From an uncultured virus (IMG/VR IMGVR_UViG_3300020438_003889) (Duplodnaviria; Heunggongvirae; Uroviricota; Caudoviricetes): a stretch of 20,000 nucleotides of DNA. Position 1 is the stretch's first letter. Every line of letters begins with the position of its first letter. Location: IMG/VR virus record IMGVR_UViG_3300020438_003889; one strand, given 5' to 3'. Positions 17,989 through 19,617 of the stretch are shown piece after piece. The notes beneath the pieces were generated by a model, which ran no database searches, was not told where the DNA came from, and worked only from the letters and a program-made list of their open reading frames with translations. The position numbers and the translations under genes are program-made.

Positions 17989-18180
17989 ATGTCAGAAACA
18001 CATGAACAGATCATGACTGAGATTCAAACTTACTCTGAAGAGAATCAAAAATTCACAGAGAAAGGTGTTAAAGCAAGTGCCACAAGAGCAAGAAAGGCAT
18101 TAGCATCTCTTTCAAAATTGATCAAAGCAAGAAGAAAAGAAATTCAAGAAGTTAAAAACGCGGCAAAGACAGCGGCGTAA
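17989..18180 (+). CDS. Small basic histone H1-like (Hc1-family) putative DNA-binding protein
   Basis: KGVKASATRARKALASLSKLIKARRKEI resembles the G(N/V)KAA..RARK core of Hc1-like proteins. Strong RBS, own promoter and terminator. Confidence 0.65.
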   Translation: MSETHEQIMTEIQTYSEENQKFTEKGVKASATRARKALASLSKLIKARRKEIQEVKNAAKTAA

Positions 18181-18203
18181 TTTTTAATTATTGAGATCTC
18201 ATT

Positions 18204-18238
18204 AAAGCCTGTGCAATTATGTTGTGCAGGCTTTTTTT
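18204..18238 (+). terminator. Rho-independent terminator between convergent genes (possibly bidirectional)
   Basis: AAAGCCTGTGCAA-ttatg-TTGTGCAGGCTTT stem (two G-U pairs on the plus strand) ending in a T7 run. Confidence 0.85.
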
Positions 18239-18671
18239 ACGACTCGAGAATACCTTTGCTTTTTTTCTCTCTGATAATTCCAGATCCGTGTATTCGCACT
18301 CTGATATGACCGTTGTAATAATCATCAGTCTCAAGAACTTTACGTGCAAATTGTTCTCTGGCTTCTATGTAGGATAGTTCTGCTCTGGATTTACAATAAA
18401 AAAGTATTTCTCGTGTAAATTTGTCTTTACCAAGTTTTTGGACATCTTCGGTCAAAGCATCACTTGAACCAAAATACTCTTTCCAATCTGATTCCACTGT
18501 ATATCTGCGTTTGTTGACTCTCCCTTTTAACGGAGGTCTTGCTTTTTTGAACTCTGCTAACTTTTTACCAATATATTTCCTACCATTAGTTGTATTTGTG
18601 ATCTGATACACGAACCCAACTACACCTTCTGGTACTTCATCTACTATTTCTTCTTTGTATGTCCACTGCAT
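18237..18671 (-). CDS. GIY-YIG family endonuclease (144 aa from ATG 18671)
   Basis: GFVYQITNTTNGRKYIGKK (GIY-YIG), YFGSS, FTREIL, conserved E (YIEAREQF) and YYN. ATG at 18671 preferred over the TTG at 18689. Confidence 0.88.
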   Translation of the reverse strand: MQWTYKEEIVDEVPEGVVGFVYQITNTTNGRKYIGKKLAEFKKARPPLKGRVNKRRYTVESDWKEYFGSSDALTEDVQKLGKDKFTREILFYCKSRAELSYIEAREQFARKVLETDDYYNGHIRVRIHGSGIIREKKSKGILES

Positions 18672-18676
18672 ACTAC

Positions 18677-18684
18677 TATTTAAA
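18677..18684 (-). promoter_or_regulatory. Late promoter variant TTTAAATA, 5 nt before the GIY-YIG ATG
   Basis: Minus strand reads TTTAAATA-gtagt-ATG with no SD. Confidence 0.55.
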
Positions 18685-18694
18685 GCCAAAAAGA

Positions 18695-18723
18695 TTGACC
18701 TGTAAAAATGTTTATGTTATATA
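18695..18723 (+). promoter_or_regulatory. Sigma70-type promoter facing the non-coding region
   Basis: TTGACC (18695-18700), 17-nt spacer ending TGT, TATATA (18718-18723). No plus-strand ORF follows. Confidence 0.6.
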
Positions 18724-18728
18724 CAAGT

Positions 18729-19152
18729 GATAGGCAACACAGCAAATTAAAATTTCTCATAGGCAAATATAGCATCTTCGTACATAAGGGAGTTACGGTG
18801 TAACAACACAGGCGAATCCCATGATGCAAACAGCAAAAAATGATGAGGCTCTTAGAAAAAGATAAACCTCAGGTTTACCAAATACTATTGTGTAAGGGTT
18901 TGGTAGGCTCGCGTTGGATGAATGAGTTAACGGGTACAGCACAACCGCCCGGCGAAAGCAACGATACACAATGACTACGATACTCGCCACAGATTATCAA
19001 AGTTAGTTCGGCTAGAAATAGCCGAATTATGACTACTCATCTGCCACAGAATACGCAACACTAGAAGTTGCGTTAAAAGTTATTTTCGAGATTGCGTAAA
19101 TTAGAAGTAAACTGAGCGTAAGCGAAAGTTTAGATGTCTTTAGACATCTTTT
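18729..19152 (+). ncRNA. Putative large structured non-coding RNA (family unassigned) and/or origin-priming transcript
   Basis: ORF-free, GC-richer than its flanks, with an upstream promoter, about ten predicted helices with G-U pairs favouring the plus strand, GNRA tetraloops, a 9-bp loop-to-downstream pseudoknot, and a terminal hairpin plus T run. Confidence 0.65.
19132..19152. terminator. Palindromic hairpin AGATGTCT-TT-AGACATCT followed by Ts; possible terminator
   Basis: Perfect 8-bp inverted repeat at 19132-19149, between the putative RNA and the stop of the convergent 134-aa ORF. Confidence 0.45.
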
Positions 19153-19163
19153 AGTTGATGTGA

Positions 19164-19568
19164 TTACTCTTCTTCGTCGTCAACTTTGTTATACTTTTCA
19201 GATAGTACTGACTTTAATTCCGGTTCTTCTGATTCTTCAATATTGGAAACATCCTCATCAGTTAATTCTACTTCCTTATCCGGTTCAAAATCTTTGATTT
19301 TTTCTTTTGCGAGTTTTAATACTTCTTCCATGGTTTCCAGTTTTGCTTTTAGTGTGGCGACCTTAAGTTTTAGTTCCTCGTTTTCCTGTTTTACGCCCGC
19401 GGCGTGTTTGCCGACATGGTCTACGTCTCTGGTAGCATTTTCTAATCGTATGAGTATCTGCTTGTTACGACTCTCTTTTTGAGAAACTGCCTGATGTAGG
19501 TGTTCCTTTTCAAGTGTTAGGTCTTTGATTGTATTTTTAAGTTCTAGGACTAGATCGCTGGTCGACAT
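19164..19568 (-). CDS. Hypothetical coiled-coil protein with acidic C-terminus
   Basis: Heptad-like LELKNTIKDLTLEKEHL...LKLKVATLKAKLETMEEVLKLAKEKI, then an E/D-rich tail. Preceded by a TTTAAATA late-promoter-like box. Confidence 0.75.
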   Translation of the reverse strand: MSTSDLVLELKNTIKDLTLEKEHLHQAVSQKESRNKQILIRLENATRDVDHVGKHAAGVKQENEELKLKVATLKAKLETMEEVLKLAKEKIKDFEPDKEVELTDEDVSNIEESEEPELKSVLSEKYNKVDDEEE

Positions 19569-19577
19569 ATGTTCATT

Positions 19578-19585
19578 TATTTAAA
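19578..19585 (-). promoter_or_regulatory. Late promoter variant TTTAAATA upstream of the 134-aa ORF
   Basis: Minus strand TTTAAATA-aatgaacat-ATG. Confidence 0.5.
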
Positions 19586-19599
19586 GAGGTCTGTGTTCC

Positions 19600-19617
19600 A
19601 TTATAGTATACTATAAT
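19600..19617. repeat. Perfect 18-bp palindrome ATTATAGTATACTATAAT
   Basis: The sequence is its own reverse complement and lies immediately after the gp51-like stop codon. Confidence 0.85.

Follow-up and report, generated by a model that had tools for sequence, protein, structure and literature searches.

The stretch of DNA analysed here (the window) is 20,000 nucleotides (nt) long and comes from the uncultured virus IMGVR_UViG_3300020438_003889 of the IMG/VR database. It is part of a 44.7-kb contig with a T4-like gene set, and its source is an uncultured marine jumbo T4-like phage. Baseplate genes lie on the minus strand of the window and gp55, gp47 and gp46 on the plus strand. After gp46 come a gene for an Hc1 histone H1-like protein of 63 amino acids (aa) (17989–18180, plus strand; PF07432, 47.5 bits) and a gene for a SegE-like GIY-YIG nuclease of 150 aa (18237–18689, minus strand; PF19835, 126.6 bits). 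Divergent from the nuclease gene, positions 18730–19152 of the plus strand encode a real, conserved, non-coding structured RNA of ~420 nt, the subject of this report. Its 3′ neighbour in the window is a convergent open reading frame (ORF), on the strand opposite to the RNA, for a coiled-coil-like protein of 134 aa.

The RNA is conserved in many marine phages. A blastn comparison of 18690–19163 with loci fetched through gp46 found the RNA region kept at 72–97% identity, far above expectation for an intergenic spacer. An nhmmer profile gave 129 matches, in viral loci in every case (the second collection scan used an invariant 19-nt pattern). The 82 near-full-length matches comprised 53 distinct sequences, from which 49 representatives below 97% identity were kept and aligned with the window (50 sequences). 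A first alignment held the window and 28 of 30 full-length references, two exact duplicates of one locus (L039) having been removed. DNA runs containing the stretch come from sea-water, marine or viral metagenomes of many studies. Of 50,697 phage records, none matched the RNA in a blastn search. A 16-base pattern scan of cellular genome contigs returned 120 matches in unrelated, mostly GC-rich bacteria; we regard these as chance because none matches the nhmmer profile.

The plus strand folds at −103.9 kcal/mol (z = −3.18), which 0 of 100 shuffled sequences equalled; for the minus strand z is −1.95 and 3 of 100 shuffles equalled the native fold. The plus strand thus beats both its shuffled controls and the minus strand; an earlier reading of the letters alone (the original prediction) had named folding no better than shuffled controls as evidence against the RNA. 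RNAalifold predicted 72 pairs, 31 with compensatory change. We also built our own structure of 82 pairs in 15 helices from a helix scan and mutual information. On the 50 sequences, 97.4% of its 4001 pair cells are paired, compared with 30–38% when partners are slid by 1–3 columns. Both sides change in 42 of the 82 pairs, and 0 of 500 shuffles reach any of these measures. Conservation and covariation are therefore found in homologous loci, pseudoknot included, and the covariation supports the proposed plus-strand, stand-alone RNA structure with a pseudoknot and conserved GNRA loops. The region had also been described as free of ORFs. ORFs of 41–65 aa do overlap it, but no frame is conserved: the ORF starting at 18840 varies from 4 to 83 codons across the 50 sequences, and several have no start codon. 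Because the length of this ORF is unconserved, we treat the RNA as non-coding.

The RNA opens with a leader of little structure (18730–18771, plus strand, as are all parts that follow) that contains two UAGGCA motifs (18731–36 and 18760–65). Two to four copies of AGGCA are conserved in the leaders of the aligned relatives. The 5′ domain (18772–18827) consists of a helix 18772–76/18823–27 enclosing a second, 18788–91/18817–20, and a small variable hairpin. Its helices 1 and 2 have two and three pairs with two-sided change. These are the GCATC/GATGC and GGGA/TCCC helices of the original prediction, both supported by covariation in the 50 sequences. The GTTAC/GTAAC helix placed inside them is kept in few sequences, and in the alignment a different small helix covaries there. 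Next is a hairpin of UGAGG/CCUCA with an inner 2-bp helix (18844–18871; helices 3 and 4), with the near-invariant AAAAAUGAUGAGG just 5′ of it. In this hairpin, 18846–18869 is AU in 24 sequences and GC in 23, and 18853–18864 is UA in 26 and GC in 24.

The long hairpin (18872–18909; helix 5) has 11 base pairs, 18872–82/18899–909, plus the pair 18885–18896; it had been drawn as a 12-bp stem. Both sides change in 10 of its 12 pairs, which include the top mutual-information pairs. Its loop, UAUUGUGUA at 18886–94, pairs with UACACAAUG at 18965–73 to form an H-type pseudoknot (18886–18973; helix 6). The pseudoknot is 98.7% paired over its alignment cells, shows two-sided change in six of nine pairs and is recovered by an independent helix scan. 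It ranks among the best-supported helices of the RNA.

The core junction (18911–19056; helices 7–10) was outlined by RNAalifold and is closed by GCGU 18911–14/ACGC 19053–56. Within it are the short helix 18926–27/18961–62, a hairpin 18931–35/18947–51 with the near-invariant loop GGGUACAGCACAACCGCCC, and the GC-GAAA-GC hairpin at 18952–59. The pair 18927–18961 is CG in 41 sequences and UA in 9. The junction is the most conserved stretch of the RNA and anchors the two covariance models used below. Covariation bears out the CGGGT/GCCCG and GC-GAAA-GC helices. Of the pair cells in the CGTT/AACG helix proposed to close the junction, 98% are paired, but in none of its pairs do both sides change; the combination of 18911–14/19053–56 with 18926–27/18961–62 fits as well or better. 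The TGAGT segment had been given two possible partners. With ACTCA it is 91% paired but has only one covarying pair; with ACTCG it is 77.6% paired with zero covarying pairs.

The 3′ half of the RNA contains two copies of a 7-nt motif, GCCACAG. Copy 1 (motif 18986–18992, in the context ACUC-GCCACAG) lies in the loop of a hairpin at 18979–18998 that was recognized by eye. The hairpin stem changes by clade from ACUC/GGGU to ACUC/GAGU to UACA/UGUA, and is only 82% paired in the gapped alignment. Then come an 11-bp GAAA-capped hairpin (19004–19029; helix 12) and a conserved UAUGACU (GUGUGACU in most relatives). This hairpin, also part of the original prediction, is 99.5% paired with five pairs of two-sided change and is conserved into distant clades and bacterial copies. 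Copy 2 (19039–19049, AUCU-GCCACAG; motif 19043–19049) is apparently single-stranded. The linker that follows (19057–19108) is poorly aligned and variable in length, with ACGCA/UGCGU repeats. The predicted ACGCAAC/GTTGCGT helix is 86.6% paired where present, but lies within this poorly aligned stretch. The linker repeats could compete with the closing helix, and a switch role is conceivable. The 3′ domain (19109–19131; helices 13 and 14) is a hairpin of AAACU/AGUUU enclosing GAGCGUAAGCGAA, with two-sided change in all five outer pairs. The last element, found by a terminator scan, is the hairpin AGAUGUC/GACAUCU followed by UUUU (19132–19153; helix 15), with three pairs of two-sided change. In the window it resembles an intrinsic terminator. 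In many relatives the U run is absent after the last hairpin, and the sequence continues into a plus-strand ORF.

Upstream, a probable sigma-70-type promoter lies at 18695–18723 of the plus strand (TTGACC 18695–18700, a 17-nt spacer and TATATA 18718–18723), exactly where it had been predicted. Across the 44.7-kb contig, an exact copy of AAGATTGACC is found only here. A consensus promoter scan did not call the site because it demands a T as the sixth base of the second hexamer. Among the 49 relatives, 34 have TTGAC followed by A, C or T within the first 60 nt; only 14 pass a simple rule for a −10-like hexamer at a spacing of 16–18 nt.

Six RNA sequencing runs contain about one-fifth of the sampled words of 18200–19600. 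We mapped contigs from four RNA runs of four studies to the window. They start at 18741 (three runs) or 18733 (one, with two further letters) and end at 19020, 19043 or 19117. Positions 18485–18732 are uncovered in all four, and contigs of only one RNA run touch the GIY-YIG gene. The contig starts fit a transcription start a few bases past the −10 hexamer and hint at an RNA more abundant than its neighbours. Metatranscriptomes thus do contain the RNA, but we take expression as a hint only, because contigs carry no strand, ends or level and RNA libraries may hold DNA. Two runs (X15 and X16) also yielded contigs of another RNA that matches only the inner 5′ hairpin (18790–18829; 40 nt, two differences). 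This second RNA diverges on both sides of the hairpin, suggesting further expressed relatives built from other modules.

The original prediction did not recognize the family. With Rfam 15, the window matches no family at its gathering score, and at E values (expected chance matches) up to 10 over 18600–19250 the only matches are fragments of archaeal or nematode small nucleolar RNAs (12–17 bits). The Polynucleobacter-1 RNA, RF01718 (141-nt model, gathering score 37 bits), is likewise absent from the window at the gathering score and from 18600–19250 at E up to 10. We also searched with covariance models of our own: R1, of the core (18870–19058), and R2, a further core-anchored model. R1 extended the set to many further viral loci with full-length matches of lower score, always on the plus strand a little downstream of gp46, including eleven loci of a distant clade (clade B; gp46 ~55% identical). 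The distant loci carry a long extra 5′ part, and this part is RF01718 (38–108 bits). Two sets of loci were tested for RF01718 immediately 5′ of the core; it was there in 7 of 9 and in 8 of 20, together 15 of 29, and is absent from the clade of the window and several others. In the RNAs with RF01718 the core-matching region starts ~40–50 nt later, and the twin motifs and the GAGCG..GCGAA hairpin of the 3′ domain are there as well.

RF01718 also scores above its cut-off in 3 of 151 sampled Burkholderiales genomes, with one further weak match. The carriers are Polynucleobacter-like genomes of ~1.7–1.9 Mb. Only one bacterial locus (L326) gives a core match, with R2 (13.9 bits, E 0.1), in the expected place and on the expected strand. 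By eye, the bacterial loci have the twin motifs, the hairpin with the conserved loop, and a GNRA-type hairpin with GUGU just after it. The pattern GAGCG-NNA-GCGAA (19109–19131 in the window; ~1190–1215 on the minus strand of L326) is kept in phages of clades B and C and, among the four bacterial loci, in L326–L328; in the bacterial copies it resembles their twin motif AGCGAAA. One distant locus (L079, 4661–4815) has a shorter core of 155 nt in which only one motif copy was found, perhaps representing a reduced or truncated member.

Because core models match just 3′ of RF01718 elsewhere, we consider the RNA of the window to belong, in domain-reduced form, with a larger modular RNA. Of that larger RNA, Rfam describes only the 5′ third, and the family is new to Rfam as far as the window copy goes but linked to a known entry through its relatives. 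The two forms share the core, the twin motifs and the 3′ hairpin; they differ in that a small, unrelated-looking 5′ domain replaces RF01718 in the window. In its table rows and seed header, the RF01718 description includes neither core nor pseudoknot, and mentions neither twin motifs nor phages. The table entry for Polynucleobacter-1 classes it as probably RNA and probably cis-regulatory (‘cis-reg? y’), with the switch unknown, from 16 representatives of Burkholderiales and fresh-water or estuary sources (Weinberg et al., 2010; PMC2864571). A literature search on RF01718 found no other paper naming the motif.

No match came from the cultured relatives examined. By gp46 identity, the nearest of these are three jumbo phages: PA5oct (48.5%), Sinorhizobium phage Phosso and Atu_ph07. 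R1 and R2 found nothing in the whole genome of PA5oct (best E 3.4, elsewhere) or at the Phosso and Atu_ph07 loci, and R1 found nothing in the whole genome of the Methylophilales phage Melnitz. The four non-coding RNAs reported for PA5oct sit at other coordinates in the table that lists them (PMC7318152, Table 1). The interval from gp46 to the baseplate hub is an unannotated 1-kb gap in Phosso (L324 9410–10425) and contains only tiny hypothetical ORFs in PA5oct (L002 9236–10750) and Atu_ph07 (L325 8154–8782). R2 finds nothing in any of the three, and the interval may hold an unrelated RNA in these phages. Four strings of the RNA were unmatched in the searched part of the supplements listing 10,006 candidate viral RNAs of 29–151 nt (PMC10690425), a set that may still list a fragment of it.

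The twin motif is the new feature of the RNA. The two copies of GCCACAG in the window lie ~57 nt apart, and mutual information shows that 18986–88 and 19043–45 covary in identity, not in complementarity. In the 50 aligned sequences the two hexamers are identical to each other in all, with eight variants. We extended the comparison to 71 sequences from all phage clades in which both anchors were located (5 of 76 were left out because they were not). The best shared 7-mer is identical between the copies in 60 of 71 and has one difference in 11, over 24 variants. Each of these 11 is a transition, with no transversion among them. Shuffled regions reached a 7/7 match in 39 of 1420 cases. Copy 1 is flanked by CUC and copy 2 by UCU in most phages and in three of four bacterial sequences, so the flanks too differ by transitions only. 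The shared stretch extends to 10–14 nt in several lineages, and each copy is part of a longer repeat of the form UGUGACU-N8-10-motif. In the four bacterial loci the motif reads AGCGAAA, GGCGAAA or AGCGAUG, again in two copies, 53–59 nt apart.

Several simple explanations of the motif were considered and set aside. A complement of a tRNA anticodon loop or a T-box-like specifier was rejected because motif positions 1–2 are also identical between the copies and because, for several variants, tRNA position 37 would have to be a pyrimidine; an anticodon-loop mimic was rejected because the loop has 6 nt. UGUGACU...motif as a promoter at the DNA level has a spacing of ~10. Kissing between identical loops fails because most variants have no palindromic core, and a target-site duplication because the position is fixed in all lineages. 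The hexamers are not enriched in the contig (7 and 6 occurrences, ~11 expected).

Our preferred reading, which we put a little below an even chance, is that this is a stand-alone, trans-acting structured non-coding RNA and a domain-reduced member of the wider family linked to RF01718. It would start from its own probable promoter and end at the terminal hairpin. Its stand-alone nature is suggested by the convergent next gene, the hairpin and UUUU at its end, and downstream ORFs that are dissimilar between clades. The multi-helix core with its H-type pseudoknot would be a scaffold displaying two lineage-specific copies of the motif ~57 nt apart, copy 1 in a hairpin loop and copy 2 in the junction strand before the closing helix. 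More tentatively, both copies may pair with one complementary sequence in RNA or DNA, which would make the RNA a bivalent programmable adaptor and not a cis-regulator. Because the copies differ only by transitions, we favour base-pairing to a common nucleic-acid partner over recognition by a protein; such differences fit wobble-tolerant pairing to one partner strand containing G and U. The two copies might bind a pair of sites within a single molecule or two separate molecules, and the RNA might act as guide, bridge or sponge. The data show the structure, its conservation, the lack of a conserved frame, presence in RNA libraries, the family links and the concerted twin motifs, from which we infer trans action, pairing and a partner. 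The RNA itself is large, conserved and probably abundant; it ties RF01718 to marine giant phages and carries the concerted twin element.

Several observations weigh against this reading. A complement of the motif was sought inside the RNA and none was found, and no site at a homologous position in the 7–14 kb phage loci tracks the motif. The one exact 11-nt complement, in a baseplate gene, was rejected as a partner: it is a conserved coding run for LWWVF and does not covary with the motif. Genome-wide complement counts in three bacterial genomes are somewhat lower than the control in two (29 vs 46 and 22 vs 32) and about twice it in the third (57 vs 29). Co-change of two copies and a partner is a demanding three-way process, and a co-evolving dimeric protein could also keep two sites alike. 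For the weakest covariance-model matches (E 0.001–0.1), homology leans as heavily on position and strand as on the score. The promoter is a probable one that rests on a consensus match, and the RNA-library contigs, with neither strand, ends nor level readable, may derive from DNA.

The protein-based alternative is that the RNA is a scaffold or decoy whose twin sites bind a dimeric or repeated RNA-binding protein or RNase, including antitoxin-like and nuclease-decoy roles. Two alike sites at a fixed spacing of 53–59 nt in a rigid-looking fold are what such a protein might need; the larger repeated unit around each motif and the AGGCA repeats of the leader would suit it too, as would the presence of the family both in phages and beside an integrase fragment in a bacterium. 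However, the protein would have been re-specified many times to follow at least 24 very different variants, the 11 of 11 transitions point to wobble pairing rather than protein contacts, and no candidate protein is common to the phage and bacterial loci examined. We consider it unlikely. Type III toxin-antitoxin RNAs consist of tandem full-length repeats beside a gene for a ToxN/AbiQ-type endoRNase; here there is by eye a partial repeat unit of ~22 nt, and no ToxN-like gene is among the general Pfam matches, no tandem-repeat or PADLOC scan having been made.

An improbable but more specific form of the pairing model is a programmable bivalent guide or bridge RNA, using two identical 7-nt segments (at least 10 nt with flanks in some lineages). 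The segments would pair with one sequence present on two strands or molecules, for instance inverted-repeat half-sites or the identical core of two recombining DNAs, and the RNA would aim a protein that has no DNA-binding domain: the GIY-YIG protein in phages and another enzyme in bacterial islands. IscB/TnpB omega RNAs, IS110 bridge RNAs and tigRNAs similarly combine a conserved scaffold with short, lineage-variable segments, and here too the RNA gene adjoins a nuclease (phages) or a recombinase fragment (bacterium). TIGR-Tas RNAs are reported to have two short guides each (PMC12045711). In contrast to these systems, no IscB, TnpB, IS110 or Nop-domain protein lies near the RNA, and the variable segments are two copies of the same 7 nt.

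The original prediction had offered the divergent nuclease as a partner of the RNA. In clade A, PF19835 is directly upstream and divergent in 21 of the 29 upstream ORFs tested (29 of 33 loci; two duplicates and two loci with a small plus-strand nearest ORF were left out). In the eight exceptions another gene is interposed, with a minus-strand ORF of 136–157 aa further up. In clade B, PF19835 is directly upstream in 8 of 9 loci and co-directional with the RNA. In ten further contigs (up to 124 kb), the sole PF19835 match adjoins the RNA in all ten, nine at ~210–370 nt from the core and one at ~1.1 kb. The proteins have 135–165 aa, of which the domain covers 123. GFVY, YIG, R62, E94 and N126, which we take to be catalytic-type residues, are invariant in 11 homologues. 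The protein is 56–76% identical between clades in which gp46 is only ~55% identical, and because its identity exceeds that of gp46 it is better conserved than expected of a selfish homing endonuclease. Both PHROG 447 and many phage records label the family ‘NAD synthetase’, which looks like a propagated mis-annotation.

The RNA could then be the guide or specificity partner of this bare-domain nuclease, with the twin motifs aimed at a repeated or palindromic DNA site. The near-constant adjacency in phages, retained after a flip in orientation, and a protein that is a bare catalytic domain with invariant residues and no DNA-binding domain speak for this. But Melnitz has a 62%-identical GIY-YIG protein and no RNA detectable by R1 or R2 at the locus, or by R1 in the genome. 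The bacterial locus L326 has the RNA and no GIY-YIG gene among the six ORFs scanned; the neighbours there include an integrase fragment and a gene of the DUF6641 family. The nuclease family is common in T4-like cyanophages and related phages, with 554 phage records (339 of them named Synechococcus), among which Melnitz is the best match and the only one checked for the RNA, and 7 nt is short for a guide. With the nuclease lacking a detectable RNA in Melnitz and the RNA lacking the nuclease in L326, an obligate pair is unlikely, and the obligate co-occurrence expected of RNA-guided nucleases in general is not seen here. The adjacency may simply be inherited, because all phage carriers share the gp46-to-gp51 synteny. 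We regard a nuclease partner as decidedly unlikely.

A cis-acting 5′ leader or riboswitch of the downstream gene is similarly doubtful. It would account for the 20 of 29 clade A loci in which a plus-strand ORF begins between 10 nt inside (overlap in two loci) and 23 nt past the modelled RNA end, for the co-directional ORF that also follows in clade B and in the bacterial locus L326, and for the many relatives without a U run after the last hairpin. ACGC(A), with its three possible partners, resembles an expression platform, and Polynucleobacter-1 is itself marked probably cis-regulatory in the table that lists it (PMC2864571, Table 1). However, the downstream ORFs are unrelated between clades, so that the homologous co-directional gene expected of a riboswitch is not found. 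The window and loci L032, L034, L040, L041, L009, L022, L024 and L062 have no co-directional gene, yet the RNA is kept at 72–97% identity. The window copy ends in a hairpin and UUUU facing a convergent gene, and the RNA-library contigs cover the RNA without its flanks. The slot between the RNA and gp51-like genes contains unrelated ORFs of 256–462 aa by clade (L013 9027–9797, L074 8981–10135, L071 9722–10699, L066 8945–10198 and L079 4976–6364), none with a Pfam family, whereas the window has no ORF in this slot. Gene turnover thus seems to be concentrated just after the RNA.

A ribozyme, self-processing or acting on another RNA, is very unlikely. The size, the pseudoknot, several GNRA loops and near-invariant unpaired stretches would be in keeping with one, and the motifs could be substrate arms or cleavage sites, the identical copies marking two processing sites that release a ~57-nt unit. 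Yet no Rfam ribozyme, RNase P or intron matches at E up to 10, and contigs span the motif sites (X15 18946–19117; X16 18741–19043). For this option and for a replication primer, both raised by the original prediction, we found no specific support. That the RNA is a primer or origin transcript is barely credible: it adjoins the recombination genes gp46 and gp47, and T4 origins use transcripts as primers, but such primers need no conserved tertiary fold and the bacterial member sits beside an integrase fragment, not at an origin.

Known classes of RNA were also compared. Like transfer-messenger RNA (tmRNA), this is a phage-encoded pseudoknotted RNA of 350–400 nt behind an early-type promoter. 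For the window RNA, ARAGORN found 0 tmRNA or tRNA genes, Rfam gave no tmRNA match, and by eye there is no tRNA-like domain or conserved tag frame. Two-piece tmRNAs occur in marine phages such as Melnitz (PMC9004378). RNase P RNA was rejected for want of an Rfam match at E up to 10. A group I intron accompanied by a free-standing GIY-YIG homing endonuclease was rejected likewise; the RNA interrupts no ORF and is bounded by a promoter on one side and a terminator on the other. HEARO/omega RNA has no Rfam match here either, and the neighbours are the Hc1-like gene, the GIY-YIG gene and the 134-aa ORF.

There is also a resemblance to the large, ornate bacterial and phage RNAs GOLLD, ROOL, HEARO, raiA and OLE, which are likewise several hundred nt long, with many helices, pseudoknots and a phage or mobile-element setting. 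They differ in that the window RNA matches none of them in Rfam and has no tRNA genes nearby. To our knowledge, none of these classes has a demonstrated biochemical role, and we know of no concerted twin motif described in any of them.

Regarding the wider neighbourhood, most clade A loci have an ORF of similar size (62–76 aa) where the window has the Hc1 gene. For a marine jumbo phage, a histone-like protein of chlamydial type is unusual.

Large, intricately folded RNAs of obscure role are rare, and several turned out to have surprising activities. Here a 141-nt orphan Rfam motif becomes the 5′ end of a modular RNA that is apparently several hundred nt long (~420 nt in the window). The RNA is placed in abundant marine giant phages as well as fresh-water bacteria, with a first hint of transcription at sea. 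A base-pairing element that can be reprogrammed would be expected to leave just such a concerted twin pattern. The pattern is directly testable, as a short sequence pair that changes together over more than 20 lineages with only wobble-compatible differences. Polynucleobacter can be cultured. Because Polynucleobacter-like Burkholderiales carry the RNA, its partner can be sought experimentally, which the uncultured phage does not allow.

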